Assembly: GCA_964187785.1 (NCBI GenBank)
Contig: OZ076409.1
Coordinates: 49,664,001-49,728,000, forward strand
Origin: Amphiscolops sp. MND2022
Lineage: Eukaryota
Direction: 5' to 3'
Length of the DNA stretch: 64,000 nt
Under the pieces are notes generated by a model that made no database searches, was not told the origin of the DNA, and saw only the letters and a list, made by a program, of their open reading frames with translations. Shown here in pieces: positions 1-38,400 of the stretch. Position numbers and translations under genes: made by a program. Within the stretch, counting starts at the first letter, position 1, and each line of letters opens with the position of its first letter.

Positions 1-450
1 AGGAAGGGGTGAAGAAAGAAGTTTGGAGATATTCACCTGAAATAGATTAGTTTGTTTACATTTAAATTTCTTTTTAAGTTAGATTTTTATTGTTGACATT
101 TTTTTGATGTACTTTATTGTGTTATATCTTTTTAATTTTAGGATTCAAGTTAATGTGTTTTGGAAATCTTTTGAAGAGTTTTTAAATATCTTTCATTTGA
201 GGTCTTATTTGTTAAAATTGGGTAATTAAAAGGAGGAGCATTTGAAGAATTTTGTTAAAAATTTTTATGTTCATAGTAAAAATTTTTGTATTATTCTAAA
301 TTAAAGGTGTATTTTATTGGTTAGAATAGACTATAATTGTGCTCAGCAAGCATAATTAAGTAAGTACAAGTTGATTTGACAGGTTACAGGTTATTAAAGA
401 ATTGAGAGTCAAGTGTGAAAATTATTAAAGCTATTATCCATAATAACCAG

Positions 451-1402
451 TTAAGATTGTTGGAGTTTTTTAAAGGTGTAGTTGATTTCATCAAAGGATG
501 TGCGTATGCACGAAGCTGATTGGCTAACTCTCGTCGTATCCAATGCTATATTTTGCAATAGGTCTCGGGCTTGTTCGAGTGTATTAACTATATCAGAAAT
601 AGTAATAAGTATAACCTTTTTGGGGTTATGATATGGTTTTAAAATGTCCAATAATTGTTTATAGTTTTGTATTTTTTCGGTAGGAGGAAAACTTTCTGGT
701 TGAGGAATGTCATATGTTGGTTTCTTTAAAGGTTCTTGATTTGTTCTTTTATGTTCTTTCATATTTCCTTTTGTAAGGATTGAAATGAGATGAGAAATAA
801 TGAATCATAATTCATTATTGGAATATCCCTTTTTTGCGATAGCGTAACAATAAGATTTTTTCACAGTCTCCAAGAGGTTGGGAGGCAATGGGTTGAATTG
901 GAGGAATTTTGAGGAAGAGGGTCTGATATACCTTTGTGTATATCTTCTTGTAATAGCGAATCATCATTCAAAATGAGATATTCTTGTGGTACTATAATTG
1001 GTCTTTTTGGATTATCATTTAGAAGGAAAAGAAAACTTTGTTTCAATGGGTCGTAATTCCTTGTTTTTTTTTAGTGTGATCTATTAGGTAGTCTCAGTTT
1101 AAAGTGAAAGGCGATGTATACTTCGAATTGAAGAAAATATAATTTTCAGGTTCTTTGTATTTGAGAAATTTTTGGTACGTAATTTGATGAGATTTCTTTA
1201 TCTGGTATGGCAAAAAATTAGCATCATTCTCTTCAGTTCTGATATCATACGGAAATAGTCTGAGGAAATTATATTGAAGAGAGAAATTTTTCACTTTGTT
1301 ATTTAACCACCAATCATATGGGGTAATTAATTTTGAAGCAATTGAAGTATGATAATCGTTTTTAAATTCTCTGATGATAAATTTGCATTTTGTTGGAATC
1401 AT
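451..1402 (-). pseudogene. Probable single accessory ORF broken into fragments 1402-1094, 1046-861 and 762-451
   Basis: ATG at 1402, 33 bp after the preceding stop. The fragments are colinear and can be joined through a premature stop and a frameshift in an A-run (~1063-1072). Confidence 0.35.
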
Positions 1403-1435
1403 ATATTAGGAAGGTAAATGAAATTGGAATGTGAA

Positions 1436-1747
1436 TTATTTTAAAGATAAAATGGGAATTAAATCACAATCTCGATCTTCATCTTGTTTTGATGGTTTTG
1501 TGAAAGGAGGACAAGCGCCAGATTCCATAAAAGGTTTATCGGCGATTATATCTGGGTATTTTCGTTTTTGAGATTTTGCGTTTATATGATCAATTTGTTC
1601 AACTGGAATGGTTTCCATGGGTTCTTGAATTTGTGAAGATGAATTATCATTTTCGTTAACATTTTGTTGAATGGTTATATTCAAAGGGGATGCAAGCAAT
1701 TCAGAGGGACTAAAGTTAACTACATCAATTTCAGGCAAGGATTCCAT
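1436..1747 (-). CDS. Small ORF downstream of env, unknown function (103 aa, acidic/disordered, KRK basic patch)
   Basis: ATG-initiated, same strand, closely spaced with neighbours. Confidence 0.4.
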   Translation of the reverse strand: MESLPEIDVVNFSPSELLASPLNITIQQNVNENDNSSSQIQEPMETIPVEQIDHINAKSQKRKYPDIIADKPFMESGACPPFTKPSKQDEDRDCDLIPILSLK

Positions 1748-2200: not shown

Positions 2201-5200
2201 TTAGGAGGAATTAAATTTTATGAAAACTTTTGCGGGGCTTTCCGGTGAAGCTATTGCATTTTGTACTAAGGCGTCATAATCCTGGGAACTTTGTGGTGTT
2301 TTAATATCAATAATTTTGTTTGGGTGTGTCTTTTTTGGTGATTGAAAGGTTGAATTTTTACTTGTATATTTAGGAGGTAAAGAAGGGGAGTCATTATCAG
2401 AGTATCTTTTCATTGGATTGTGTGTTTCTTTTTCGGATAACAGGATATGATCATTTTCACTAGTGATAATTTTGTGTTTAGTATATAGCCGTTTACGTTT
2501 TCCTGTATTATTTGAATCGGTAACCATTTCCAATGTGACTATATTAAAGAATCCATGGGCTATTGAACTCAAAATGGAAATGTTGCTTTGGAGATTATAT
2601 TTTATACTAATTGTCCTGTAGAATCTGAGTAGGAAAGTTAAAACTTTTCTTATAAAAAGAAAGGTAGAGAAATAAATTCAACATTATGTTAAAATATAAC
2701 ATGGGTATCCGAATAAATTAATGAACGCTTGACTAAACCAGTTAGGGTTGAAGAGTAGTAAAAGGTTTAACAAATGATCATGTAATCAAATCCTTAAATG
2801 ATTATGAGGATTTGATCCTGTGTGGGAGTGTTGTTCACTATGCATTGTAATGAAATCGTAATTTAATGATTTTTCAAGTATTTGGAGAGTTGTATCTGAG
2901 TGTTTTGCGGATAATTTTCTATTCCAGAATTGATCTAATTCTGCATTTGAGTGAAAACCGGCATCTTGAGCTGTGAATGTATTGGGTGTTATTGTTGTCT
3001 TAATTTGAGTGGGTTTAAACATTTGTGGTGGTTCCCTTTTTAGCGGGTCTGGTGTTAACACAAAAAAATCTCCGTCATCTGCATGTGGGTCTAATTCAAT
3101 AATATTTTGTGGGTTATTTCCACATTCTATTGGTGTGGCATAATTAAAAGTTTGTCTCGTTATGGGGTCTACATACATGATAGTTTCTCTATAGTGTATG
3201 GGAATTCTATCAAAGCATTTGTCTGCTTTGTATAGTGGTGATATGAAATGAGGGCAATCATACAGCCATGCTGTAGATCCGTCGACAGAAAAGAAGTTAC
3301 TGCGATTTCCAGTTAGAAGGAAACCGGCTAATTGAAGGTTCTTAACTGACATAGCTAAGATTGTTAACAGTTGTGTTCTTTCTAGTTCACATACTGCGTG
3401 GAGAGTGTTTAGTTCTTGTACTGTCATTGATTTGAATACGTGATTTATTGTGAAGTCAATTTTTATATTGATATGAGCATCGTAATCTATGGTAGCGAAA
3501 TTATTTGATATATTTAATGCAGGGAATATATACTTTTGATTAGAATTATCAAATTGTATTTTTCCACTAATATTTTGGTCAATTATTGAATGTGGTTTTG
3601 GCTTTCCAGTATTCATATCCAAACCATATAAATAAGTAACGAAAATGTCGTCGTATTGTGTTGAATATAGTGGTTCTGGTTTTCCACAAAAGGTTTGAGC
3701 AATGGGATATATTTCAAATCGAGAAAGATTTGGATTGTCTACAGTTGATTGTGGTGTTTTGACATTGGGGTATTTTGTTCCTTTTATTCCTTCGGTCTGA
3801 AGGTGTTTTGTGATATTTGAGGAATCGATAAAGTTATCTGTTTCTATTCAATAACGGTCTTTAATTCTTGTCATTCTTCCAATGAATTCCTGTAATCGAA
3901 AGATGAGGCAAAATTTTTCATCAAACCATGTTAATATGTATGGAGTTCTTGTAGTGGGTTTACAAAATCCATCTGAATGATAACATGGTAATATATACCC
4001 ATCATGAATTATTTGATTATTTTTATTGTCATAGGTTATTTCAGCATTAGTTATTCTGAGTTTCCAGCTTTGTCGGGTTATTAAATGTTCTTTGTCGCTT
4101 CTATATCTTGAATAATGATTTTGTGTAAAATTAACTAAGCAGTCTCGGTAATGTTCATCATATACGAATGTTCCAATATGCCAAGCATTTAATTTGTTGA
4201 CTCTAAATGGTTGTTGAACTCGTTCAATTTTGTTTTGATAATCACTGTCGTCAAAAAATGAGAAGGAACTTTGTATGTTGTAATTGTTTAATTCATTACT
4301 ATCGGTTGCGTTTAAACATCTTATCATGTTTTTACATTCAATAGGGTCAAGTACTTTCAGAAGTTCTAATGTATTTTGTCCCCATTGTAAATGATCATAT
4401 CGTCTACTGGATGAAAATGTTTGGGAACACCAAACCTTTTCTGTTTTTATATATGCTTCACATTTGAAGGCTTCGATTCTTTTTGCTTTTGCTCCAACAT
4501 ATACTGTTGCTTGAGTTTTCGTATGTTGTGTGTCTGAGGGTGCTTGTTTACATGGTTCAACATTTATTAAGCTGAATTGTCTTAAGTTGTTTTGTTTTGC
4601 ACAGTCATAACGGGATACCAGAAGGTTTATTACGTTTGGGTCTTGTGGTGAAATATGGTTTTCTGGGTTTGTTGTATCAACTTTAGGAACTGATGTAGAG
4701 TTAACAATGTGTAATATATACAATTTGTGTTGAAAGGTATATTTTGCATTGTTAAAACATAGTTCTATAGTTAGGTCCTGAGAAGGGGTTAAAGAAGTTT
4801 ATTTGACCTGTTCTAAGTTCTGGTAATTCAGCGTCACAAAGATAAGATTTTGATGTGACTAAAAATGGTGAGGGAGTTGTTTTATGTGCTACTCTTGTTG
4901 AAAGAGAGAATGGATGGGGCTTTAAAGAGTTGAATGTAACTTCGACTTCACATTTTAATGTTAATTGAGTTTCTTGTAATCTTCGTAGTTCTCTTTGTTT
5001 TCTTGAGTTTGAGAGAGAGCTATTATTTTTAAATCTAATAGGGAGTACTGTGTATCGAGGATCTTCGTTAAGACTACGAATAACCGTTGAATTAACACGG
5101 ATGGGATATTCGTGTGGGTTTGGTGTAGGAGGTCTCGAATATTCTTCTAAAGTGTATTCAGGTAATTGTATCGATGAATCAGATAGTATTGAACTAGGTG

Positions 5201-6150
5201 AATAAACTCGTGAAAAGTTTGCGGCGCTATCTGATATAGTGTGAGGGTCTTCCAAAATAAGAGATGCTGATTCAAATCCTGATGTGACTTGAGATGGTAA
5301 TGATAAGGAAGATTCTATTGTGGGATGAGATGAGGAAAGAGAAGGGGTGTCTGGTCGGGGTTGTGCTTGTTGTCTGACTAGTCTTGAGTTTGTACTAGAA
5401 CTAGTTAAAAATGATAATTCTTGAGAAAATCTTAGTTGTTGAGTTGAAGGTTATAACTATGTCTTGGTACTCGGGTACTAGCTGTCGAATCAGAGTCTTT
5501 ATCTTTATGGTATAAGTCTGTTAAGGAAGAGGTTGTGGTTGATTTTAGACGTTCTAATTTTGGATATAAATGAGAGAATGTAAATGAACTTATATCAGAT
5601 GGTGAATTAGTTGTATGTTCTCGTATAGTTTTAATTGGAGTTTGACTTGTTGATGGTATAGGAGTATTCTTTGGTAATGTTGGTATCGGAGTTTTTCTAA
5701 TTGTTTTCGTTGCGGTTGGTATTCTGTGTGAACAGGAGCTAATGTATTGAAGAACTGAATCAGGATCAGGGATATGAAGAGTACGGATAGTAGGAATAGG
5801 TGGAAAGGGGGTCTATTTATGATACTTGAAGTATCTTGCACATTAAAGGTAAATGATTCATCACACGAGTCACTTACAGGTGAATTTGTTTCTAAAAATG
5901 GCAAATTTTGTGATTGATTTGTTGTAGTTGTTGTTTGAGTTTAGAGTATTGGAGTATTATGAGGCGTTGCTGTTATTCTATCGGGAGAATATGGAGCGGA
6001 TGGACTAGGGTTTGAGGGCGAGGAATCCAGTATGTCTGTATCTGAATTTAGATATGCTGTATATTCAGGTAGTGTTTGGAATGAATGGGTTGAACTAGAT
6101 GATAAATTGTTTCTAACTGATGAAGGTGAAGGTCTATGGCTATCAATCTT
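2201..6150 (-). pseudogene. env: env-like ORF: Ser/Pro/Thr-rich N-terminal part, Cys-rich class III-like glycoprotein ectodomain, TM segment and cytoplasmic tail (disrupted)
   Basis: ORFs 4723-3848 and 3622-2786 carry YDC, CEAY..VWCSQTF, ECKNM, LPC....GFC, WF...FC, CELERTQ, WLYDCP, KCFDRIPI, YVDPITRQ, IEC. A hydrophobic stretch LFGYPCYILT*C*IYFSTFLFI (~2650-2720) is in frame with the 2572-2201 tail. Start is uncertain. Confidence 0.75.
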
Positions 6151-6475
6151 GAAGTATTATATTGTAATTTGCAGTTCTTTTTCTAATCATAAGTTTCACT
6201 AATATTCTCAATTTTTTAGCTATCTTAAATAAAGCTATCTTATGTTCTCAAATGCTATCTTCTTTTTAGTGTTCCTTTTTCAGGTTACTACTTATCTTTA
6301 TTTGTTTCGAGCTTCTTCATTCAACTTTCATTCAGCAGGATTTTAGAGAAAATGAAATCAGGTCCTTTTCACCAAGGAAAAGTCGATAATCTTTTCGTGG
6401 TTGTGGGCGGAAATCGTATCTGTCATGGGTGTGTCTTCGGGGATTAATATAATTGTCATAGTCGTGAATATTTGA

Positions 6476-7900
6476 TTAGTTTTCTGGGTTGGTGTAACTG
6501 ATTTGTTGTTTATTTTGTTGATACGGAAATGAAGAGTATTGGGTAATTGATTCCGGTTGGAAGTCAACTGTGGATGGTATTTCCGTTTCTTTATTGGAAT
6601 TATTAATTTCGTCTTCAACTAATTCTTCTTCATCTGAAAAAGACACAAAAGGAATTATTGAGTCGTTTGTACTTGAGTTATTATTATCAGTATTATTATC
6701 AGTAGAATGTGGGTTATATTTTTGAAAGGAAGGGAAAACGATTGGTTCTTTTGGGTAGTAAGGAACTAATTGGTTTCTATGTATAAGAGAAGTATAACCA
6801 TCTTGATTAACAATTTCATTTGTAATGTCAGAAATTTTATTAATGATTTTAAATGGTCCAATTCTGAGTGGCCTTAGTTTATCTGAAAAATGAACATGGA
6901 GAAAATTTCTTTTTAATACAAAGGTATCGATGTCTAATGGTCTTAATGAAATAAGCAAATGAATTTATTTTTCTTTTTGTATTTTCATATACTGTAAGGT
7001 AAATTTGTATCATAGCTGTTTCCGTAGCCAGAATCCATTGTGGAATTGGTTTTGATAAGATTTTATGGAAGAAGGGGTTTAAGTTTGATATGTCATAGTG
7101 TGTATGAAGTGGTAATTTCTGACAAAGTTGAGATGTACAGTTTCTATAAGTATCTCGTTGGAGATTGAGTTCAAAATTGATTGAGATTCTTGGTATAGTG
7201 TGAAATACTATTTCGTATGGCGAAAGATTTAATTCAGAGAGTGGTTGTGAAGTATGTGCATAGTCGTACATATGGACTTGGGTGGACCAGTTTACAGGTG
7301 TATTATGTAAGAAAAGTCGAAGATGGGTTCCAAGATTTTTATTTTGATTTTCTACTAAACCATTTGTCCATGGTGGGTAAAGTGTTCTTGGTGAACGTTC
7401 CCATTGTAGTGCAAAGGTTTGCAAGTTCAGAATTAATATATTCTGAACCACGATCTGCAACTAAATACACGGGGGGTCCAAATTTAGTAGTCCAATGATT
7501 TAGTAGAGAGTTGACAGCGTTTTGGGCATTGTTTTGTTTAACAGGTACTGTTACTACAAAGTGGCTAAAGCGTCTAATATCACATGATTATATGAACTTT
7601 GATCAGATGGTGGATTTACAGGGCCTTTTGTATCCATTGATATTCGATAGTTGAAATATGAAGCATTTTCTGAAAATTTTTGTATTGTTGCAGTTTGAAT
7701 TTTTTGGTTAATGTGTTTGTTTTGTTGACATTCAATGCAATCATGAATGAATGTCGATATCCATTTATTATAAATGGTATAAAATAAAATTGATTAAAAG
7801 CTTTTATGGAAATTTTAATTCCTGAATGTCCATGTGCATGGAGTTTATTAAAAGCTGCATAAAGAGTTTAATTGGTAGACATATTTTGTCGTTTTGATTT
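6476..7900 (-). pseudogene. pol: Integrase (HHCC, DDE core, GPF module), frameshifted
   Basis: HAHGHSG...CIECQQNK (~7730-7840), RISMDTKGP (~7620-7650), VADRGSEY (~7435-7465), NGLVENQNK (~7340-7370), LRIGPFKII (~6840-6870). Confidence 0.9.
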
Positions 7901-8462
7901 GGGTTTGAATCATGTATATTAGGATAACATATGTGGATGATTTTTGTTTCATGATTTATGTACAATTGGTGGAAGAGTTTGTAGTAAACTGATAGGAAAG
8001 AGTTACTTGCTATTGTTGGATCTTTTTGTAAAGGTCTTTCGTTAATTTGTAACCAATGATAAACTTTTTGTAGAACGGGATTGTGTGTTTGTTGTGATTT
8101 TATAGTTCCAATTGTTATTGGGGTATCTTCTGGGAGGAAGAAATAATGAAAATATTTTTTATACTTAGTGAAGGATGGATCAAAAAATGGAACTTGTCGA
8201 TTGTAATAATCAGATTTAGTGGGATATTGTATTGCAAAGGTTTATTCTTTTAATGTATTTGTGTTCTGATCTTTTATATCTTGTGGTTGATTTGGTTTGT
8301 CTTCATGGCTAAGAATATCAGTATCATTAAGGATAGTTGATTGTTGTAGAAGTGATTTTGCTTTATTCTTTGTGGGTCTCTTGTATTTAGATTCAAATGG
8401 AACAATGGATTGAAATGAAAATTAATCTGAAGGTTTTATATGAATATCTTCTCCTTTGTTGT

Positions 8463-9080
8463 TTATGCGAATGGAAAATTGATCTTCTCCATAGTCAGCG
8501 AGAATAGGGTGGCAATCATTTTTTTATTGTATTTGATTTCTTCATGTTTCACTAAGTAGTGTACAGGTTTGAGTTGGTTGTCTTTCATAATAGAGAAATT
8601 GATTTGAGGTGGCAATTGTTTGTGTCGTAATCGATGTATTTGAAGTTGTTTTTTGGTAAAGGTTTTTGAAAGCATATCTGCTACAGTTAAGTTTTTTCCA
8701 CGGGTGTGAATAATTTTGAGTTTTGAAAACTTTGTGAGTTGCATTTGTTCTCTATAAAATCTTGGGCTAAGGTTTCCCTTTTCGGCAAAACAGTGTAATA
8801 AAGGTTTGTGATCTGTAAAGATGTATATTGGATGAGGAGATCCAAAAATGAGAAATTCGTATATTTGTAAGGCATAGACTATTGCAAGAAATTCTCGGTC
8901 TAATGTTGAAAGTTTTTGTTCGTGGGTGTTGAGGATTCGTGAGTTCTGAGAAATAACTTTCATTTTATTTTCTTCGTTCATTTGGAATAGAACTGCGCCT
9001 ATGCCAACTGAGGAAGCATCAACTGTTATGAAAAATGGATGTTTGGTATTGGGTATGGTTTTTTCGGTGTCTGCCGTCAA
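8463..9080 (-). pseudogene. pol: RNase H domain of Gypsy pol
   Basis: ITVDASSVGIGAVLFQ...DREFLAIVYAL...IFTDHKPL...GKNLTVADMLS are typical Ty3/Gypsy RNase H motifs. Confidence 0.93.
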
Positions 9081-9084
9081 CGAA

Positions 9085-10020
9085 TTTTTAACATCTTGGA
9101 ATATTTTTTAAAATTGAGGTGTTTATTGGAAATTTACGTCGTCGTTTAAAAATGTATATAGCGGTTTGAGATTTATATGAAGTTTTTCAATGAATTTGGA
9201 TTGGAAATTTACGCTTCCTGAAAACTGCATAACATCTTTCTTATATTTGGTGATCGGATTCTTTTTATGGCTTCAATTTTTGATGGGATTGGTTTAATTG
9301 TGTTATTTCCTTTTTCATGTCCAAAAAATTTTACTTTAAGTAACATGTAAAATGATTTTCCAGGTGAATATATATCATCAATTTATACTAGTGCAGAACG
9401 TTTATCTGTGAGTGATCGAAAGAAGGTTGACATCTGTTTTGTGAAAAAGTTTGGGAGCCCTTTTAATCCATAGAATCCATGGATAAAGGTATATATTGTG
9501 TCTCTGAAAATCCCGTGAGTTTGATTGTTTCTTCATCTAATGGAGTATGCGCATATGCGTACATTAAATCAATGGTTTGTTTGTATTTCTTGTTAGCTCT
9601 GGCTAATTGGGGCGCTAAAGGTTCAATGGGCCAAGATTCAAGTTCTTGATTAGTGTTTGAATTTAAGTGTCTTGCATCTAGAACAACTTTTATTGAGTCT
9701 CCTTTAGGAATAACAATTAAAGGGTTTTAAAATGTTGTTCCAATTGTGTGTTTTTCATCTTACAAAGAGCCAATTTGTTTTATTGTATTATATTTCTCAA
9801 GTTCTGTTAAGAGTTTGTTTAATCTATCTCGATAGTGAATTGGTACCTTAGAGGGTCTTTGCGTTTGCAGTTTACAATTTTCTTTAATTCTAGTTCTGAA
9901 AGGAATAGAAATTTTTCCTGCAATCGTTTTGTGTTTAGCGTAACAATGTTGGTTGTTTATAAGAGTATTGCAGAGGTTTACATATCCAGTATCAGTCAAA
10001 TCTGAGTATTCGAATTAAAG
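9085..10020 (-). pseudogene. pol: Reverse transcriptase (inactivated)
   Basis: Manual translation gives PLIVIPKGDSIKVVLDARHLN, IDLMYAYAHTPL, GFYGLKGLPNFF and LV*IDD (YIDD with Tyr codon turned to TAA, 9374-9385), then KVKFFGHE. There are frameshifts and an apparent deletion after IDD. Confidence 0.9.
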
Positions 10021-10599
10021 TTTTTTATAAACTGCTGATTTTCTGCAGTATATGGTAGGGAAGGAAAGTCTTTTCTAATTTTATCTGAAGGTCGAAGATT
10101 TCCTGTGACAGAAGGTATAGGTCATTGAAGTGTTTTGTGATTGATTTCTATTTTATTAGTTTCTAATAAGGATTGTGGAATTACTCGAGTACATAAATTC
10201 ATATCTGTATAATCATTTTGTTTAATTGGATTAGTAGTATCAGCATGATAGGTATGTATTACTGATTGAATGAGTGAGTTTACGTCTTGAACTCTATAAT
10301 GAGGAGGTGTTGTTTGAATGATAGGAATCTCTGTGTATCCAATAATTCCTCGTGGTAGTGTAGCTGGATGAGAAGTGAATTTTTGAATTACTGTAGAGCA
10401 TGAGTCTTTATTTTCATCATTATGATCATGTCTAATAGATGAAAACATCTTTAAATTTTTGAAAAAAGTATGTATATGGAATTGATGGGTAGAAATTAGT
10501 ATTATCTTCTAGTTCAATGTGTAAGTTGAGATAATTTTTGATTGGGAAATCTATAGTTTTTCCTGACCTCGGTTTAAAGTGAATTGGTTCTTTACATTT

Positions 10600-11050
10600 A
10601 ATGGTATAAATGGATGGATATATGGGTAATCTTTTTCTGTGAATGTCGAAAAATTTTGAATGTTGTTCTTTATAAGTCATAATGTTTTGTTGAGAGTCTA
10701 AATTTTGAAAATTTATCTTGAAGAAAGGTGCTCCAAGATTATTGTACTTAATGTTTGCTACTGCAAATTCAATATTGAAAGATCTATTTTGATGATTTAC
10801 TTCGGTAAAGCATGTCATTGAAACCTAATGTACTATTGGTACTTCAGTTTGGTTGGCAACTGTAAGAGTTTTTGCTCGTTTATTTTCAATCTCCCTTGGA
10901 ACATTAAGGTTTAATTGTTTTGCAATTACAAGAAATGTTGGTAGGTTTAAAACTGAAATAGAAGCTCCAGTATCTAAGAGAAATAGAATTTCTAATTTTG
11001 AAGGTAATATGTTGTCTTTTCTTTCAGAAGCATGTATATATAGTGGATAA
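10600..11050 (-). pseudogene. Retropepsin-like aspartic protease (disrupted)
   Basis: Minus-strand translation FLLDTGASISVLN at ~10950-10985; downstream IEFAVANIKYNNLGAPFF is the ILG.F-type motif. Confidence 0.85.
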
Positions 11051-11189
11051 AACTACCTATAAGGAGTAATTGTGTTTGCAATTTCAGTGATTTGACATGT
11101 GTGAACTTCAAATTTAGTACTATCTTTGTCATTAGTAGATTTAACATCTTCTTGATTGATTCTGTTTTGTTGTCTGTTCTGTGAAGGCG

Positions 11190-14100
11190 TTCTAGATCGT
11201 GATCTGTAATCTCTTGGTTTGGATGGAGTCTATATGGGTAATTATATCGTCTAAAGGAGTTTCCTTGTGATTGAGAGCGAGATCTATATCTTGATCGAGA
11301 ATTATATCTGTAATTAGAGTTGTTCCGGTATGGTCATCTATATGGAGATTTGGATGGAGTTCTTCTTTGATATTGGTTGTCATATCTAGATCTAGATGAG
11401 TATGGACTTTGGGATCTATTGTAGTATCTTTGTCGAGAATCAGATCGATAGTTGTTTTGTGAATAATCTCTACTGTTACTTCGGTATCTATCATTATTTC
11501 TATATCTATCACTATGGTAGGAGCAGTTTTGACTATATATATTACGGTCATTATCTCTATACGAATATTCAGTTTTATTTTCAATCCGGTTTTCTTGAGA
11601 ATTGCTGGGTTTACTGAGTAATGTACAAAAGATTGTTGGGGAGTTCTTGGTCTCGGATTTCTATATTTTTGGTGTTCTTCGTCACGTTGTTTTTGATAAC
11701 AATTTGAAACACCGTAATTGTTTTTATGACAATAAGAGCAATATTTCTTGTAAGCTGGTTTACTTTTGTTGTTTGGGTCTCGAGGCTGAGTAACCATTAT
11801 ATGGTCAGGTTCTAATTCCTTCTCATTATTGTCATTTTCAATGAATATTTTGTTCATGTCTAAGGATAGATCATTGGTTCTTGTTTTTTCGTTAGCAATA
11901 TCTTCAGAATCAACATGTCGAACAAGTGTGTGAAATGGTATTGACGGTTCAAGTAACGTTGATACGTGTTTAACTTGTCTTTTGTGTGCAAAATGCTCTA
12001 ACTTTTTAGGTAGTCCTTTTGTAAAAATTTCATTGTTTTTAAGGTTTTTAGTGGCTGCAATTTCGTTGCACCATCCTTTTTAAACTACTTGTTGTACTCT
12101 GAGAGCGAACTGGCGTAGTGTTTCATTATCTTTTTTCATGAGTGACATAGCTTCTAATTGTGCGTAATAAGCTGTTTTTTGAGATGAAAATTGTTTTTTA
12201 AATAACTGTACAAATGAATTCCATTGTTGTTTATATGATATATGGAGGTTAGTGTACCAATCAAGGGCTGTTCCTATTAAAGAACATTGTATATATGCCA
12301 TGCGTCTATTATGCCATGATCTGTATTTTACAGGATTATTTTGAGGTTCTTCACCTATGGCAAAGGTTAATCTTGCTTCAACTTGTTGTGAATATTCTTC
12401 TGGGATGTAAAAGTGATCTAACCCGTCAAAAGGTTTCATTGATTCTGGTATTGGAGCTGAAGTATTTATGAATGTATATTGTTGTATTGGTAAATTAGAG
12501 GTGGAGGAACTACAGAGTGTGCCATGTTTACAGTTGGTGAATTTTGAGTGGGATTGTAAGTCGTATGTTGATTCATTTGATATAAGGGGTCGATTGATAT
12601 ATACGAAAGTGGAGGATTTTGGGATCGTCTTTGAGAAGATTGTACAATATTAGAAGATGGTATCCTTTGATTTTGTGAAGGAGAATTTGTTTGTGCGGAT
12701 TTTGTTGATTGCGGATGTGCGTATGGGTAATGTGCTAGCAAATTAGGATTACTGTTAGGTTGAGAAGTATTTTGATTATTATTCGTTTGAATATTTGTAT
12801 TAGAGTGTGGATAAAATGAGTAATTGAATGGGTCATAATATCGGCTGGAAGTTTGCTGGTTATTATTGTCTTCAGATCGAATTGTTTTGTTTGGATATTT
12901 AAATGTAGAAGGGAGTGATGGAGGATCGTATTTAGATCGAGTAATATTTTGTGTAGTATTGAGAATAGTTCTTGTAGGTGACGAAACATTAACAAAGTAT
13001 TACGGAGTGAAGTTATTTTTTGAGTTTCATCTTGTATTTCATCATCTGAATTAGAGGGAAAGTTGAAAGTAATGTTGCGTCGTGGAGATGTATCTGAGTA
13101 TGATTGTGGATCATATGTATTTGGTCTTGGACTAACAACCTTAGTTGGAACTCTAACAAATTGGTTGTTTGTTGATGTCCCAATTTGTGATGCATCATGT
13201 GCTGAAGTTGTAGATTCTGGGGTGGTATATTCACTTGTATGTACAATTTTTTGATTGCGATTTTCATGTTGATTTTCAAGAGTGTATTCTTCATTATTCT
13301 TATCATTTTCATTGTAGTTCTCATTGGTAGTAAAAACACTTTGTTGTTCTTGAAATTTTTGTTCATAACGGTAAGGTCTATTGTCATCAAGAAGATTGTT
13401 TTCTGTAATTAAACGAGGATCAAAAGATATAAAATCAATGGTTTGTTTTGTTATTTTATCTGGTTTGAAAAAATAAGGATGTTCATTCGTTTTATTTATG
13501 ATGAATGGTAGACATTCATCAGCTGTAAAATGAGTTGTGAATACTGTGAAAGCAGATTGATCCTGTTCTGACAACAGTAGTTGATATTTGAATCTGAAAC
13601 ATTTTCTAAGGAATAAAGAAATTAGTTTAATTTGAGGTATTGATTGTTCGTTCAATGTTATATGTTTGAAATAGTGATATAAGAAACTTTGTATCCGTAT
13701 TATATCTGTTTGTAACCAATGATGAGGATTATCTTGAGTTATAACTATTCTTTCTATATCTTCTATTTCGAAGTTGTGTATATATTGTTCAAATTCGTGA
13801 AGTGCATTTGGGCTATATTTTGGATTTTCAAGTGCTACATTGTATTCTTTTACTTGGTTTAAGAAAAGTTATGGAAAACGTCTTTAATATGGATTTGGAG
13901 ATTAATTGGGTTAATTGTTCTTTTATATGTTTGGGTTGAGGAAGTTTCTTGTTGAGGGAAAGTAATTTGAAAAGATGGATATTCTGTAGAAGCAGTTGTA
14001 GATCTATGTCTAGTATAGAAGAGGTATGTATCCAGATGTTCTCTAATAAGAGGAATTGTTTCAAGACTGTAGGATTCACTTTCAAATGAAAGTGGTTTTG

Positions 14101-14740
14101 TATAATTATAAACAATGTTGTGTAGAAATGGTTTTATTTCTGTTTTTATTTTTTGGAATTTTGAATGTTAGGTATCTCAAAAGGTGAAGGGGGAAGATTT
14201 TGAAGACTTCATGTAAGAGATTATTTATTGATGTAAGTAACTTTTCCAACAAGATGCAAAATAGGAAAAGAACGCGAAATGTATATGTGGTGATAAGGAT
14301 TATTGTGGTATTTTTTCCCACATGGTATGTTGTCTAAGTATCACAATTTTCTAAAATGAAATTGTAAAAGTGTTTAAGAAGAGTTGAAAGGCAAAAATGT
14401 AGTAATAAGGGACGTTTTTAATTGAAGTTGTCTTTAAGTTCGTGATCTTGGGTAAATTTGTTGTTGGTTCAGAAGATAGAAAAAATATGGTTCGTATTGT
14501 GGAATTAATCTCTCAAAGTCTACAATTGTAGGGTTATAAATAGGGTTGATTATATGAGGAATTTTATGGGTATAAACAGATATTGAAGTAAAAAGTTGAA
14601 TTTTTCGAGGATTGATTATGTGTGTTTGAGTTCATAGATTTTATCTTGTATCCGATATAATTTGTTTAAGGTTTTATTATTAAGGATAGAGAAGAGAGAA
14701 GCGGATGCAAAGGAATCTGTATTCAACCTCAAGGATTGTT
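11190..14740 (-). pseudogene. gag: gag-like region with long N-terminal extension, capsid-like segment and zinc knuckle (disrupted)
   Basis: ORF 12439-12080 (MKPFDG...GTALDWY...W..FVQLFKKQF...ETLRQFALRVQ) matches the retrotransposon gag pattern. CSYCHKNNYGVSNC near 11740 is a CX2CX4(H>Y)X4C knuckle. Upstream fragments (13655-12735 and others) continue as a stop-interrupted frame to ~14740. Confidence 0.8.
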
Positions 14741-14999
14741 AACAGAATCACTTTATGAGTTTAGTCTGGAATAAATGAAAGTGTCTGACATAAGGCCACT
14801 GACACGTCCAGTGAGAGTTGTATTTTTGAGCTGGACTTCAATTAATGTGTCTAACATAAGGTTATTGACACGTCCAGAAAAGCTAAGGGGGTTTTAATTT
14901 TAAGTGGGTTGTGTTTTTTTTAGGATTAAGGGAGTGGAGCTCTGAACAATCAACGTCCACTATCCAAAGTCGGATCAATACTGATCAAGATCAAAAGTT

Positions 15000-15913
15000 G
15001 ATCTTTTGTGTCTTTTACCTTTACTTTTACTTCCTGAGAATTTCGAAGATTCGAACGTAGTTCGGTGTCCTCTAGATTTTCCTTAATGACGTTTAAACTT
15101 AGCTAAGGTGTTTAGTCAGTCTTAAAATCAGATTATGAAGCTGAAAGCTAGAGTCTGATTGTTTAAGTCTTACGGGAGGGAATAGGAATTGCGGGTACCT
15201 GAAAGTATAAAACTACCTTTACAGTGTCTGTTTTATTTGCATGTCCTATTTTTGATTTTAGGGCAAAAGAGATGTGTTAAAATTATATGCGTAGTTTTGT
15301 TAAATAAAATGTTTTGTGAATTGTTAAATATATTGGATAGATTGAAGATGTTGTTGACAGAAGAATGTTACGAATGAGGTAGCGGAAGACTTGGTTTCTT
15401 TTTATGATTTTCAGAGTCTACTTCTGAATATAAGTTTTTTTGACGATTTTATTAGAAAATGGATCCGAAACGTAAGAGTAGAAAATCCAGGATTTCTGCC
15501 AACACGAAGTTGATCTTGAAACGTATGTGCTTATAGGTGAGGTGAGTCTGGCATGCACTCAGTCAATTATTACACCAGGAGTCCACCTGACGTTCAAGAT
15601 AGCAGGATTGAAGAATTTATTGCCGTGTCAAAGGTGTTAGAAAACCTTGATAAACCGGACAGAAGACAAACTGTTTCAACAAGCTTCCGGATGGCTGTGA
15701 TAAATCAGTAAGGAGAACAGAACTGTGTCACTGTGGATAATTCAGTCTGAAAAGAAGAGCAGAACTGTGTCACTGTGGACAAATCAGTCTGAAAATGTAC
15801 CGTGTCAACGTGTTAGAAAACGTGATAAACCGGCAAACAAGAGAACAGAAGAAGAACCGTGCGACGTTTATAGAAAAACGTGATAAACCCGCATTGGAGA
15901 AAATTTGTTATAC
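15000..15913 (-). repeat. Putative 5' LTR (U3 with tandem enhancer-like repeats; boundaries approximate)
   Basis: Non-coding region upstream of gag. Two ~42-bp direct repeats (cagaactgtgtcactgtgga...tcagtctgaaaa, 15718-15795), three copies of gtt..agaaaa..tgataaacc (~15625, ~15802, ~15865), a TATA-like TATAAG on the minus strand near 15530 and minus-strand AATAAA hexamers. The second LTR is not in the window, so the ends cannot be confirmed. Confidence 0.5.
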
Positions 15914-16119
15914 TTCAAATGGAGAAATTTTTTGTCTAATGATAATGTATTTTTTGAAGAAATTCAGAAAGTTACAGACTATATTTTCTAGAAAATCTAG
16001 AAAAATATCACTGCAATCGAAAAGAATTTCAAAGAGGAGGAGTGGTAGTTTTCTTGAACATTCTATAAACATCTAAATACTATTGGTTATTAATGAAGGT
16101 CAGTACAGTAATACTTTGC

Positions 16120-20400: not shown

Positions 20401-23400
20401 TGCTCACAGATGACAGATGGGACTACATTGAAAAGTTCTTCCAGGTACGGAAAAGCGTCACGTTGTTTCATTTGTTTCAAATAAACTCAAGTACTGTGAT
20501 GAAAAATGGGTCCCAAAATATTTTGCAATAATATATGCAATAAAAAATAGGCCCAATTGACTATCAAGTTTTTCAATGATCATAAAGCATCAATATTTTG
20601 GTTCGAACCAATCGGAATATTGGTCCGATCGGAATATTTAATTCGAGACTGTACTAATTTGGTTTAAAATTTTTCACATAGTGTTTTTCTTGTGAATTGT
20701 TTTTTTAATTAAGTGTTTTTCTAGACAGTCAAATTGGTCTCTAAAGTAATCCATCTGGCTGTAACTTATTGAATAGGTTAGCCTCATTTTCAATTTATTT
20801 CATTTCACTACTGTATCTTTTTTTCCAGGCGAAGGGATCCAAGTCGCTGATGTTCTTCTTCCAAGAGGTGGCGAAGGAGAACCAGCAACATAGGACGGAC
20901 GCAGCCAGCACCATTGGAACAGGCCCCGCCCCCAAGAAGCTGTTCATCACCAACGGCAGCCAGGAACCCCTGCTGGGTCTGTGTCTCTTCTTCGTGAGAA
21001 ACAGCAACGAGAAAGAAATCACAAACCAGACCATCGTAAATGTGAGACAAAAACATGTCTTCTTTAGACGTTTAAAGTTGACCTTACATTTGACATTATT
21101 TCCTCCGCTTAGTAACTTTAGTAGTTTGATTAAGTCGTGTAACTTTTAATATCCCCAAAAAAAAGAATAATTCACGGGGATTGAGGAAGTTTTCTGGATT
21201 CGTTGTTGGAAAACATGAACTATTGCAAAGTTTTTCAAAGAAAGACAGGGCATCGAAGTATGGAGAAATACGTTACTACTGGAGAAACAATCACTACGTG
21301 TTTAATTCTTGAAGAAAATAAACAAACTTAAAGCAGGTTTGACATAAACGAAAAAAAAGCGTTTTTAACGTAGCGAAAAAAATTAAATCAAATTCAAAAA
21401 TTATATATTTCTTGACTTTTTGTGGATGCTGTGAGAATTCTCAAAGCATCCACAAAAAGTCAAGAAATGATTAATTTTTGAATTTGATTTTAATTTTTTC
21501 GCTATCTTTTCGAAGTCTTACAGTATTTCAAACATTTGATGATATGATTTGCCCCGACAGAAGAACTTGAGTTTGGGATGACTTTAATGAATTTCAATGG
21601 CGGACTACCAATTTCTCGACTAGGTAAATGACGTACCGAACTCCAAAACTCAGGAAAACTACTATTTTTGTATTGCCAACTAAAAAAGGCGAATTGTTGA
21701 TTTTGAATGGAAAGATGAAAAATAATCAAAACAAAAAAAACGTTTTCTCATCCCGGATTAACGAAAATGTTACCTGAAAGAAAGCGTATTTGGTTCTGTT
21801 CGATTGTGAACGTTTGTTTGCTGTTCAGGAAGTAAATTTTGGAATGATGGATGCAACCGGTGGCAAAGTGTTGGAGGCTCTGGAAACCTACCTTTCCTCA
21901 ACTTTGATCCCCGCACTCAAGGCACAATCACCCGACGTTAGATTAACTTGTCATATCTCCAAATTGAAAAATATTTTTTTGAATAGTACCAATCAAGTTA
22001 CCTATTGGACGCATTGAGCACTGTAGTAGAAATGTAGAATTTGCTATAAAGACATGGAGGAAGTCTGCGTTGTGTTTAAGTATTCAAGACTGAACAAATT
22101 CCTTGGTCAGACGAGGATGATTACTGCAAATTTTGATATTTTTAGTTTCCTCGTGATTAAACGTATCTCTCGGTTCACTGTGAGATTGAAATATATCGAA
22201 CTCGAAATATTGCTGAGTATTAATCATCGTAATGTTTATCGATACCACCTATTTAAGCCACCGTCTAAACTGCTGAGAACAGATCGGTTACTTCTTTGAA
22301 TTCAATTTCAGGCCTGGGGAGTTCTCAAAAGTTACAAAACCGGTCACGTGCGTGATTTCCTGGACTCTCTGGATAAGTTCGTGTCTACTCTGGCAGCAGC
22401 CAGGACTTCTCTGGAAGGGCAAATCCAATTGCACGAGTACGAATATTCCGCTATCGTGGACATGCTGGAGACACCTAGCGGTTATCAGGTAGATTTGATG
22501 TTTCAAACTTGATCACATTAGAATTGGATTTGATTTTTCTTCAAAAGCGGAGTTGGCGAAAATTTTCGGAGATGAAACACAAATATTGTTCAACAATACT
22601 TCCAAAGTTGGACAAATCTGGGGCCCTGTCAATTACTGCAGATAACAAGTATCAATTGAAGGACCGCCTAATATTTCAATTTTAGAAGAAAAGTATGGTT
22701 TTCTTGAAAGAAGTATTTCATACATTTTGTATGCTGTTTTTTTAGAGTTTCGCATTAGCCATGAAATTTTGCAAGCCTTTATAATCTATAAACGGTAGTT
22801 AATATTTCTACTTTCTTTCAACCATTGCCAATAAGTGATAAAATATTAGGTGACCAGGGGAGTAGCAACATCTAAGGATCCGATATAACAATTTGACCAT
22901 CAATTCCAATTAATAGCCAATCGAAATCAAAATGAAATATTTGTCAGATTTTTTAATATAATCTATTTTAGGACGCAGCTGCTAGCAGTGAGACAACTGA
23001 GAAGCTGGAAACGCTTTTGGGTCACTGGTGCAAGCAGATCGAGACAGTTCTGGCGGAGAGTGAACAGATAAGAAGAGAGGCCGATGACGTAGGTCCCTCT
23101 GCTGAGTTGGAACACTGGAAGAAACGAATGGCCACTTTCAACAGGTAATGACGACAAATAAAAAAAATACTTTTCCAAAAAAAGTCGGATATCAACAAGA
23201 CTCAAGTTTAAGCGATTTTTACTCGAACCAAATTTGAATATGATGAGTTTTCTTCACTAATATTTCAAAATTTTGTTTTTGTATTACCGTTTTCCGTTGA
23301 TCTGTTTATGCAAATGTGAAAATTGGCAAGCTAATCCACGTACTTTCTTTAAAAGGTGAATGTGAGACTTTATTCTGACAAAGTTGGCGAACGCCTTGAA

Positions 23401-35400: not shown

Positions 35401-38400
35401 ATGCCGAAAGCTTCCAAAAGCCCTCAAAGATTGGCAAGCCTTTGAGGAGTTGAAGAAGACGATTGATGACTTCAACGAGACTTGTCCCCTGTTGGAAATG
35501 ATGGCCAACAAGTCAATGAAGACAAGACACTGGGACCGTATCGCAACTCTCACGGGGCACACTTTCGACATAGAGAGCGAAAACTTCCTGCTGAAGAACA
35601 TCATGGAAGCCCCTCTGCTGCAATACAAAGAGGATATTGAGGTTAGAAAATTCAAAAAAAAATGAAGAAAAACGAACTGCTGTCCTTTTAGAAGGAAGAT
35701 ATATGAAGTGCTTCAGGAATTATTGTGTCAGAAAAATTCTGCTCAATTAAGGAGCTTAATGTTTTCAGCCAGTAAAATGTTTGAGTTTCTATGAATTAAA
35801 TTTAGTAGGTGTCATATCTGATTAGATGGAAAAATAGCTTTTTTTGGCCAAATTCGTGAGCAGAATGAGATGAACCTTCGAAGGAATGTAAGCCTACGAT
35901 AATTTTACTGACTAAAATAAATATCTCAAATGATATCTTTTGAGATATTTAATTTAGTCAGCAAAATTATTATAGATTCGTTCGAATGTTCATATCATTC
36001 TGTTCACGAGTTTGGTCCAAAAAAGCTAGTTTTCCAGCTAATGAAATGTGACAGCTTTTGAACTTGATTTCATAGACTCAAACATAAAACGTCTCGTGAA
36101 AATGTCTAAATAACAAATGCTATATGAAACATTTCATTCATTTGCTATTTAGACATTTTCACAATACGTTTAATTCAACGTGCTGGACACATGATTCTTC
36201 GGTTGACGAAACTGCTTGCATGCAATGCTTACTGGTGTTTCTAGGATATCTGTATCGCGGCCGTAAAAGAGAAGGATATTGAAGCTAAGCTGAAGCAGGT
36301 TGTTACTGACTGGAGTGTGCAGAGCTTCTCATTCGGAAACTTCAAAACCAGAGGAGAGCTACTTCTCAAAGGACAAGAAACGAGCGAGATTGTGGCACTC
36401 ATGGAAGACTCGCTTATGATACTGGGGTCTCTAATGAGCAACAGGTAAGGACAAAAGAATCTTAGAAACATTGTGGGTTTCCGTAGGAAATTGTTATGTA
36501 TGTTGAAAATGAGCTCTTGGCTATGAAATGCGATTGTAAACATTAGTATCTCATCAATGCATGACTTTATGATGACATTTTTTAGCATGCCAATCTTGTG
36601 ATACCTTTTCCCAATATTTGCTTGAAGCTGAATATTTACTTCAGATACAACGCACCCTTCAAAGCTGATATCCAAAAATGGGTTCAGAAACTGTCGACCA
36701 CGACTGAAATCATTGAAAACTGGATGACTGTTCAAAACTTGTGGGTCTATCTTGAGGCTGTGTTTGTTGGTGGTGACATTGCCAAACAGCTGCCCCAAGA
36801 GGCCAAACGATTCTCCAACATTGACAAATCCTGGGTCAAAATCATGACCCATGCCCACGAAAACCCCAATGTCGTGACGTGCTGTGTGGGAGATGACATG
36901 CTGGGTCAACTTTTGCCGCATCTTCTGGAACAGCTGGAGCTTTGCCAGAAGTCATTGACTGGATACCTTGAGAAGAAGCGTCTAATCTTCCCCCGATTCT
37001 TCTTCGTGTCAGATCCCAGTTTGCTGGAAATTCTGGGTCAAGCCAGCGATTCGCACACAATCCAAGCGCACTTGCTGAATATCTTCGACAACTTGGCTAC
37101 TGTTACTTTCCACGAAAAGGAATACGACAAAATGATGGCGTTCAATTCCTCAGAAGGAGAGAGCATTGACTTCGAAAGACCAGTTCTGGCCCAAGGAAAC
37201 GTGGAGATCTGGTTGGGCACATTGCTTCAAGAGCAGCAAAAATCCCTCCATGGGGTTATCAGAAGAGCCAACGTGGCGTTGGGAGATGCTGGATTCAAAA
37301 TGATTGAGTTCCAGAATCAGTTTGCAGCTCAAGTTGGTTTGCTGGCCTTGCAAATCATCTGGACTAGAGATTCCGAAGTGGCGCTCCAGAATGCGAGAAC
37401 TGATCGAAAGGTAAACCCACTTATTTTGAACTTTCTTAACCTAAATGTTAAAGCATAATACATAATTACATACAACTTGATGGCGCTGGATTTCACAGAA
37501 CAATGGTGTCAGGACATTTCGTCCTATGCAATTTCATTCAACCTATGCAATTTCAACCGCTGCCAGATCAATACCGAATTTCCGAATAGAACAATGGTTT
37601 TATTAACCAAACAGCTAAATTTGGCATGTTTTAGACGACTTATTCAATAAAGAATACGACCAGACTGCAATTTTAGCTAGCTTACGGGCAACAATTCGTT
37701 TTTTTTTCGAAGAAAAGCAATACAGTATTTCTCATCTATCATTTTTTCAACCAGATCATGGCGAACACAAACCAGATGTTCTTGGATATTCTAAACGAGC
37801 TCATTGACCAAACAACTCACGAGTTGACAAAAATGGAGAGAACCAAATTCGAAACCCTCATTACCATCCACGTGCATCAGAAAGATATCTTTGATGACCT
37901 GGTGAGATTCAACATTAAGTCTCCCGGTGACTTCGAGTGGCTCAAACAGAGCAGATTCTACTTCAAAGAGGAGACGGATGAGTGTCTTGTCTCCATCACT
38001 GATGTCAGCTTCAACTACATGAACGAGTACCTCGGATGCACAGACAGACTTGTGATCACGCCTCTTACTGACAGGTTTATTAGTCAACAAGTTTTTGCTG
38101 ATTCTAATCTTATGTGGCAACATTTGTAGCTTCTGACAAGGTTTAATGTTTTTGATATACATGCAAAAGGATCATGCAAAGGGACCATCAAAGCGTTATG
38201 GCATTCTGCATTTATGAATGAAAAAGAAAGATTTAAGATTCAATTTATGTAATTTAAACACCATTGGGGCCTTCCGAAACCTTTGATATAGAGAAAATGA
38301 ACAATACTTTTGAACATTTTTTCAAAAAATCCAGACAAGACTTTTTCAGATGCTACATCACACTGGCCCAAGCCCTGGGTATGTCTCTTGGAGGTGCCCC

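Follow-up and report, generated by a model that had tools for sequence, protein, structure and literature searches.

The locus described here raises two questions: where did a Gypsy-type retrotransposon obtain an envelope (env) gene of viral type, and how would that gene be expressed? It lies in a stretch of 64,000 nt (the window) of contig OZ076409.1 of Amphiscolops sp. MND2022, whose genome measures 1.07 Gb. The window contains a decayed copy of an ~18-kb Ty3/Gypsy long terminal repeat (LTR) element with five open reading frames (ORFs): gag-pol, ORF2, env, ORF4 and ORF5. A sequence-only reading had identified the env gene and had proposed that it sat directly behind pol, that it represented an independent capture, and that the element belonged to a possibly undescribed kind.

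The env gene and its Gypsy carrier

The env gene occupies positions 2201..4750 of the minus strand, where it had been predicted, and is read in one frame from about 4717 to its natural stop at 2203-2201. Its main damage, attributed earlier to frameshifts, consists of four in-frame stops (3850-3848, 2788-2786, 2686-2684 and 2680-2678), and its 5' end is disrupted. Aligned with the 856-amino-acid (aa) env of a young copy, it forms one block over residues 26-854 at 82.9% identity; homology is lost only for the first 25 residues, the signal-peptide region. The Cys-rich ectodomain, hydrophobic segment and low-complexity tail are all seen. A predicted transmembrane segment lies at 2627..2683 (minus strand), where hydropathy peaks at 1.59 (residues 706-724 of the protein read with X at the stops) and where a first, full-length env model has a helix. 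The env motifs quoted by the sequence-only reading are present as YDC, LPCYHSDGFC, CELER, WLYDC, CFDRIP and YVDPITRQ, although with small differences in spacing, and YDC, LPC, CE.ER, W[LI]Y.C, C..[KR]IP and VDPI[TS]RQ were found again in env relatives at 26-37% identity. Read with X at its stops, the window env matches Pfam PF24664 (Monjiviricetes_fusion) with E 3.5e-18 and 65 bits against a cut-off of 27, and all seven other env types tested match this family as well.

In the env of the young copy, a transmembrane peak at residues 704-722, 14 ectodomain Cys and five ectodomain sequons predict a type I membrane topology. The signal peptide was judged by eye (hydropathy <1.5), and the sequence has no R-x-[KR]-R furin site. 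A profile search of 1.84 billion proteins returned 2,385 env relatives at E 0.001 or better; none of 51 pattern matches in IMG/VR was an env relative, and a sequence search against the PDB gave nothing significant. A monomer model of the young-copy ectodomain, built from a 62-row alignment, reached a predicted local distance difference test score (pLDDT) of 74.2 and a predicted template modelling score (pTM) of 0.56. Its best Foldseek matches among viral proteins were chuvirus, chu-like and xinmovirus glycoproteins (E 1e-27, TM-score 0.39-0.49, identity 11-16%), and xinmovirus and chuvirus G had already ranked first with the full-length model from 16 close rows, despite its pLDDT of 35.7. Among solved structures, the top PDB rows listed were all herpes gB (E 2e-12, TM-score ~0.3); structural alignment gave Z 11.5 for herpes simplex virus (HSV) gB, with a root-mean-square deviation of 12.8 over 421 aligned residues, and Z 7.5 for rhabdovirus G. 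The earlier call of a chuvirus-G / gB-type class III env is thus borne out by both the Pfam and the structural matches. Judging from the model, env would fuse membranes, and it probably helps young copies to pass between cells.

Gag-pol lies upstream at 6335..14150 (minus strand) and is broken by many stops and frameshifts. Fourteen minus-strand tblastn pieces match the 2653-aa gag-pol of a young copy, and window fragments match Pfam RT_RNaseH, rve and SH3_Tf2-1. Gag, protease and reverse transcriptase (RT) can be recognized within it, together with RNase H at 8463-9107 and the integrase GPF motif near 6850. Across window and young copies, Pfam matches in pol are Retrotrans_gag, RT_RNaseH, RT_RNaseH_2, Integrase_H2C2, rve, SH3_Tf2-1 and Integrase_p58_C, and the order from Retrotrans_gag through RT_RNaseH, RT_RNaseH_2 and Integrase_H2C2 to rve is Gypsy-type. 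The integrase C-terminus reads IGPFKI in both the window and a young copy; a GPF/Y motif at this place is a Ty3/Gypsy hallmark (PMC12440569). The best PDB match of pol is Ty3 Gag-Pol (E 1.2e-49). While the window RT-RNase H matches all eight other Gypsy sequences compared from the same genome (E 1e-12 to 1e-16), none of six BEL sequences from that genome falls below E 2.9, and the BEL Peptidase_A17 domain (PF05380) has no match in pol of subfamily A or lineage E (introduced below). An RT tree was made of 20 sequences from this genome only (six env-bearing elements, eight other Gypsy and six BEL, with no named references, and leaving out three env copies that had no extractable RT). In it, the six env-bearing elements group with a support of 0.943 on a long branch of their own, nearer to Gypsy than to BEL. 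The pol had been called Gypsy from its sequence, and the domain and sequence comparisons do not place it in BEL/Pao. Both the class of env and the Gypsy assignment are well supported, and we have very little doubt about either. As a separate observation, the gag-pol of one young A copy (L042:5162-7000) has ~600 aa ahead of the Retrotrans_gag domain, and contains a CX2CX4HX4C knuckle followed by a long Arg/Ser-rich stretch; Pfam recognizes nothing in its N-terminal 300 aa.

Intact copies with paired LTRs, which the sequence-only reading had proposed to look for, were found in the genome. All five young loci fetched of subfamily A measure 18.30-18.34 kb. Their 237-bp TG..CA LTRs are 99.6-100% identical, target duplications of 4 bp flank them, and they contain the primer site TGGTGCGAC as well as a purine-rich tract; in two of them the 2653-aa gag-pol is unbroken. 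The five-ORF layout recurs in all six copies fetched of subfamilies B, C and D (17.7-18.7 kb, LTRs of 338-421 bp, ending TG..TA in B). Family-wide, elements are 17.7-18.7 kb long and LTR pairs are 99.5-100% identical. The env proteins of B, C and D are 53-59% identical to that of A over the full alignment, and across subfamilies the range is 53-66%. An env search of the genome gave 8,686 first-look candidates and 115 scored matches, about 54 of which keep a stop-free frame of 863-873 codons (counted by hand), figures that are not copy numbers. For each of subfamilies B, C and D, 50 of 50 scored env matches are at 90-100% identity. The family is very abundant and recently active, and its young copies inserted recently. 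Env was tied to pol at every env locus fetched (10 of 10 for A, 6 of 6 for B-D and 5 of 5 for the sister lineages E-H), in a sample drawn from the env side.

The primer site TGGTGCGAC equals the last seven bases of tRNA-Gly ends listed in supplement 1 of PMC13524379, and eight or nine bases do not match, so that tRNA-Gly is tentatively suggested as the primer. No tRNA gene was found in the window. Among the young copies at L051:4029, L053 and L045-L047, two lie within satellite arrays (a TATAG array and a 124-bp satellite) with their LTR pairs intact. Elsewhere, an A copy begins just past the 3' LTR of a B copy (L050:2906-9998), and a D-type copy adjoins an A copy (L041); such adjoining copies of different subfamilies suggest insertion clusters.

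An AUG-less frame between pol and env

Contrary to the first description, env does not directly follow pol. Pol ends near 6335, and ~1.6 kb with a separate ORF lie between the two genes. This ORF2, rich in Ser, Thr and Pro, is found at 4752..6147 (minus strand) in three pieces (tblastn matches 6147-5803, 5809-5444 and 5444-4755), delimited with the help of a four-subfamily alignment and its start context, with a candidate AUU start at 6147-6145. In young copies, the gap from the pol stop to the env AUG is 1.27-1.69 kb and carries an open frame of 418-496 codons; none of the 11 young copies, which represent all four subfamilies, has a Met in it. ORF2 itself is put at 410-480 codons. Internal Met amounts to 33 of 39,902 residues (0.08%) over the 120 database copies listed, against 1.49% in env and ORF4. 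Pfam has nothing over its cut-off for ORF2, and its C-terminal domain gave nothing significant against the PDB.

One explanation would be that the frame makes no protein, and that the region devoid of AUGs serves chiefly as 5' leader for an env RNA or as an internal entry site, with ORF2 as a by-product or a relic of an integrase tail. Its AUG depletion indeed resembles that of the true 5' leader (5-8 AUGs versus 12-20 expected), and a Ser/Pro-rich tail that includes RYN[FL]R is likewise found at the end of pol. Against this, dN/dS (the ratio of nonsynonymous to synonymous change) of ORF2 comes to 0.23 among A copies and to 0.18 when C is compared with D, falling to 0.09 in the C-terminal domain of ~130 aa, where 41 positions are invariant across the four subfamilies. 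The motifs HIP, LYP, R-x-x-YNLR, L-x-R-x-HAQ and TSG are kept, and most of the 150 C copies scored have retained an open frame of 412-435 codons. ORF2 is under purifying selection, as are env (dN/dS 0.06-0.12) and ORF4, and we regard a frame without a product as very improbable. A fusion of ORF2 to pol or to env by frameshift or readthrough was also considered and rejected, since spacing and frame relative to both neighbours differ between copies.

If ORF2 is translated, its conservation points to where translation might begin. It starts at a near-cognate codon in every subfamily: ATC CTG GAT in B and C, AAT CTG GAT in D and AAG/AAA ATT GAT in A. The context is thus A-n-n-CUG-G in three subfamilies and A-n-n-AUU-G in one. 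An A at -3 and a GAT after the candidate start codon are found in all 12 A loci, both B, all 32 C matches and both D; the codon itself is ATT in 11 of the 12 A loci, including the window copy. Of the Leu codons, 2-3% are CTG, and R-n-n-CTG-G turns up in frame 0-1 times among 3,600-4,500 other codons, which puts the chance of the conserved CTG context at ~0.01 per subfamily. In A, gap-free conservation starts at this codon; 5' of it, indels are many among A copies, and proteins of the C/D type vary freely. From the near-cognate codon to the env AUG, the four subfamilies have 1, 1, 2 and 3 AUGs versus 9.0, 8.0, 8.2 and 11.5 expected, a depletion of about five-fold, and all of these AUGs are out of frame and open only 1-17 codons.

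The same combination, a near-cognate codon and AUG depletion, has been shown in rice tungro bacilliform virus, and we therefore favour non-AUG initiation followed by leaky scanning as the likely mechanism for ORF2 and env. In that virus, ~10% of ribosomes start at an AUU, and the others go on scanning across ORFs that lack AUG (PMC5902531). The likeness would extend to a non-AUG first ORF, an AUG-free coding region of ~1 kb and scanning to the next ORF; the differences are that the virus is a plant pararetrovirus which uses a full-length RNA and ribosome shunting, and that its mechanism was established by experiment where ours is inferred. In the proposed scheme, gag-pol would be made from a full-length RNA, and the element would be copied by reverse transcription primed at TGGTGCGAC, likely by tRNA-Gly. 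A subgenomic RNA starting near the end of pol would serve ORF2 and env, with most ribosomes scanning past the CUG or AUU of ORF2 to the env AUG. An env trimer on enveloped particles would then fuse them with target cells, probably in the germline, and ORF2, ORF4 and ORF5 would act as accessory proteins. ORF2 could possibly be a chromatin tether through its R-x-x-Y-N-L-R motif, which resembles the anchor of foamy virus Gag; there, the acidic patch of the nucleosome is bound by Tyr537 and Arg540 (PMC12125541).

The same element and env could alternatively obtain an AUG for ORF2 from a spliced upstream exon, with env expressed from its own RNA or by reinitiation after the ORF2 stop. Subgenomic RNA is required in any case, and Drosophila gypsy env is spliced. 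By eye, all of A-D have AG|T sites behind pyrimidine-rich runs in the stretch that separates ORF2 from the pol stop. Relative to the env AUG, the ORF2 stop falls between -58 and +30 bases in each of the four subfamilies, as in such stop-restart coupling. However, an AG ahead of the conserved codon is absent in B, C and D, and that of A is missing in 4 of 12 loci, while a strict donor pattern occurs in the leader of A only. Splicing alone would also leave unexplained the rare CTG in three subfamilies and the avoidance of AUG in all frames. We consider this alternative unlikely on the whole, though one to be taken seriously.

Several points weigh against initiation at the near-cognate codon and against parts of the wider scheme. 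For subfamily A alone, a near-cognate codon in good context would occur within 35 codons by chance with a probability of 0.31, and one of the 12 A loci has GTT at the start. The start pattern was seen first and tested afterwards, and since C copies are near-identical, it amounts to about four independent observations; the subfamilies are, moreover, related. Proteins of Ser/Thr/Pro-rich low complexity are poor in Met anyway. In A, B and C, the stretch from the pol stop to the start of ORF2 holds two or three AUGs, so that the RNA must begin or splice past them, or ribosomes must reinitiate. The chromatin anchor is a lead from a short motif, and global TM-scores of the env model are low (0.3 to gB, 0.4-0.5 to chu-like G). 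Taking these together with the evidence above, we find it fairly probable that this is an 18-kb five-ORF Gypsy element whose gB/chuvirus-G fusogen likely serves cell-to-cell movement, and whose AUG-less ORF2 likely starts at CUG or AUU with scanning on to the env AUG.

Origin of env and the sister lineages

It had been suggested that gB-like or chuvirus-G-like env genes belong mainly to BEL/Pao elements, which would make this Gypsy element an undescribed kind. Published work already says otherwise: HSV/gB-type env was reported in Ty3/gypsy elements of many phyla, termed "ancient errantiviruses" (Chary and Hayashi, eLife 2026, PMC13524379), and 114 of them were found there with chuvirus-like BEL glycoproteins as baits. 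The pairing of Gypsy with a gB-type env is thus already known. Like those elements, the window family has a Ty3/gypsy pol, gag-pol-env order and a class III env of gB-like type, which includes a signal peptide and a transmembrane segment. In neither is a furin site required; in both, near-identical copies are numerous, LTRs are paired and there is a tRNA primer site. It combines Gypsy pol with an intact gB-type env in multi-copy LTR elements, the features by which gB-type errantiviruses are recognized. Within pol, ~290 aa separate RNase H from the integrase zinc finger; in gB-type errantiviruses, the bridge region is reported to have a "mini" domain after RNase H (PMC13524379). Anakin BEL/Pao elements are likewise LTR retrotransposons with a glycoprotein of chuvirus type (Dezordi et al. 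2020, PMC7642597, as cited in PMC13524379 and PMC12440569), whereas pol of the window family is Gypsy-type and lacks the BEL Peptidase_A17 signature.

Whether this lineage took env recently and independently from a chuvirus-like RNA virus can be judged from its relatives. In favour of such a capture, chuvirus and xinmovirus G are the best structural matches, far above herpes gB, and the env-bearing elements form their own branch in the RT tree (support 0.943). Yet env is only 12-16% identical to viral G, against 26-37% to env of Gypsy lineages E-H and environmental contigs. A PF24664 search of the genome revealed further env types, 26-30% identical to that of A, and the five loci fetched (E, F, F2, G and H) are all Gypsy elements with the same primer site as the window family. 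In metagenomes, 11 of 96 pattern matches were env relatives. One of these contigs (L220) holds a gag-pol-env element with the same primer site, whose pol is 46-50% identical to that of lineage E. An ancient association is also argued for in PMC13524379. A recent capture therefore appears improbable, and the independent acquisition proposed by the sequence-only reading was not borne out, env being common to distant Gypsy lineages and a metagenome Gypsy element. On another metagenome contig (L224:361-5738), the same env type (PF24664, E 1.7e-31) follows two ORFs without pol or Pfam match, possibly in a different mobile element or a virus. From sequence comparison, the sharing of env with distant Gypsy lineages and with the unrelated contig L220 would fit old co-inheritance.

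The sister lineages differ in size and content. Lineage E is 12.2 kb long and its env overlaps pol; F, F2 and G measure 19-19.5 kb with LTRs of ~2 kb, and H 17.9 kb. Behind env and within the LTRs lies, in F, G and H, an intronless ORF with a TRAF-C/MATH domain recognized by Pfam (L100:7656-8405 in F, L103:7577-8551 in G, L109:7118-8119 in H; E 7e-22, 8e-22 and 4e-10, and E 1e-14 to TRAF5), in which no RING match was found. The genome has at least 150 TRAF-domain matches, and env lies within 1.5 kb in 28 of the 30 top TRAF loci fetched. The window's own clade is without a TRAF domain. Neither ORF2 nor ORF4 shows detectable kinship with the TRAF ORF (hhalign probability 0.1-0.2%) or relatedness to ORFs of lineages E-H and of 11 metagenome loci. 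Database matches number at least 120 for each; those listed look like the window's own clade, and remote relatives have possibly been crowded out. As a side observation, the pol-env spacer of F, G and H (4.2-5 kb) holds several small ORFs of 110-230 aa (upstream of env in L100 and L103; L108-L109); three of those in G appear to be tandem paralogues and carry a motif resembling FNCP[WF]KI, which is echoed in F.

TRAF domains in mobile or viral genomes have precedents. An iridovirus is reported to have a viral TRAF (PMC3352826), and Burro, a group of planarian giant gypsy elements, is described as having a mononegavirus-like env and a MATH/TRAF-C domain (PMC6431247). Burro resembles the present elements in being giant and gypsy-like, with an env matching mononegavirus fusion glycoproteins, accessory ORFs and, as in F, G and H, MATH/TRAF-C; the same text notes that extra ORFs may sit between pol and env or behind env. 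It differs in exceeding 30 kb and in having env in frame between gag and pol within a polyprotein of ~4,900 aa, whereas in the present elements env forms an ORF of its own downstream of pol, with the TRAF ORF of the sister lineages standing behind env. Troyka has CG..CG termini, a 3-bp duplication, no env and no GPF/Y (PMC12440569), unlike the window family with its TG..CA, 4-bp duplication, env and GPF.

Also unlike the gB-type errantiviruses, the window family has a length of 17.7-18.7 kb, five ORFs, a pol-env gap of 1.3-1.7 kb that bears an ORF, and two ORFs after env. The first filter of that survey admitted a pol-env gap of 500-1000 nt, and its LTR spacing could reach 14,000 nt (PMC13524379). 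The main text of that paper contains neither "accessory ORF" nor "splic", and four env motif strings had no match in the accessible parts of its supplements. In the literature covered (Repbase, subscription papers and bioRxiv supplements being outside its scope), no description of this layout was met apart from Burro, either among Gypsy elements whose pol and env enclose an accessory or non-AUG ORF or among retrotransposons with TRAF. Within the same scope, we found no description of an 18-kb, short-LTR, five-ORF layout with a conserved AUG-less ORF and a probable non-AUG start.

The window copy, its surroundings and the meaning of the family

The remaining parts of the decayed copy could be placed by comparison with young ones. 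A strong strand skew from the window start to ~16 kb delimits the element, and the locus is 68-84% identical to a young copy from a 5' LTR remnant at 16107-16055 to a 3' LTR ~1.6 kb left of the window. All features lie on the minus strand. The remnant (16055..16107) comprises the first 53 bp of the LTR (90.6% identity to LTR positions 1-53), and the next match begins at 306; the rest of the 5' LTR is missing, and the primer-binding site TGGTGCG was likewise not found in the window copy. A long 5' leader follows at 14150..16050 (68-84% identical to young-copy positions 306-1977). On the other side of env, ORF4 at 454..1747 is broken (tblastn matches 1747-827 and 894-454, and alignment), and positions 1..453 are a spacer towards ORF5, as judged by comparing the neighbouring stretch with a young copy. 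Outside the window, ORF5 lies ~110-520 bases left of its start, followed by a polypurine tract and by the 3' LTR from ~1620 bases left. In young copies, ORF4 has 435-495 aa with a conserved core and a dN/dS of 0.11-0.15. ORF5 has 150-212 aa and can be aligned between C and D, and weakly with A. Neither has a Pfam match over the cut-off or a PDB match, the ORF4 search giving nothing significant.

To the right of the element, a spliced gene on the plus strand (18100-61300), which we take from its motifs to be an axonemal dynein heavy chain-like gene, starts ~2 kb from the 5' end of the element and on the opposite strand. An insertion of the element into a dynein intron was considered and rejected, since the dynein-like exons begin to its right, near 18,100. 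A dispersed repeat family marked by CCAAAGGGTCCCCC and GCCGACTTGGGCCG motifs has several copies, in both orientations, in the dynein introns (31175-59620), and one copy is also inserted in lineage H; the family probably consists of non-autonomous DNA transposons. Two near-perfect palindromes without spacer, resembling miniature inverted-repeat transposable elements, are found at 21371-21504 (67-nt arms) and 35894-35975 (41-nt arms), and a TGACA five-base-unit array at 54192-54369.

The gB-type Gypsy elements known so far have been described as having three genes, and the window clade keeps five ORFs under selection across subfamilies with env only 53-66% identical. With its very high copy number and many near-identical young insertions, the family is a natural system for studying env in cell-to-cell spread and the roles of accessory genes. 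An AUG-less ORF ahead of env would escape gene callers as well as surveys that limit the pol-env gap or the element length, and similar elements may therefore be under-counted. The TRAF genes of the sister lineages suggest repeated capture of immune-signalling modules. It is possible, if more doubtful than not, that we are looking at an invertebrate Gypsy lineage still spreading by infection, with an accessory protein started at CUG or AUU and a fusogen reached by leaky scanning, and with sister lineages whose RING-less TRAFs would blunt host TNF/Toll signalling. If true, such Gypsy elements would be counterparts of complex retroviruses with accessory genes.

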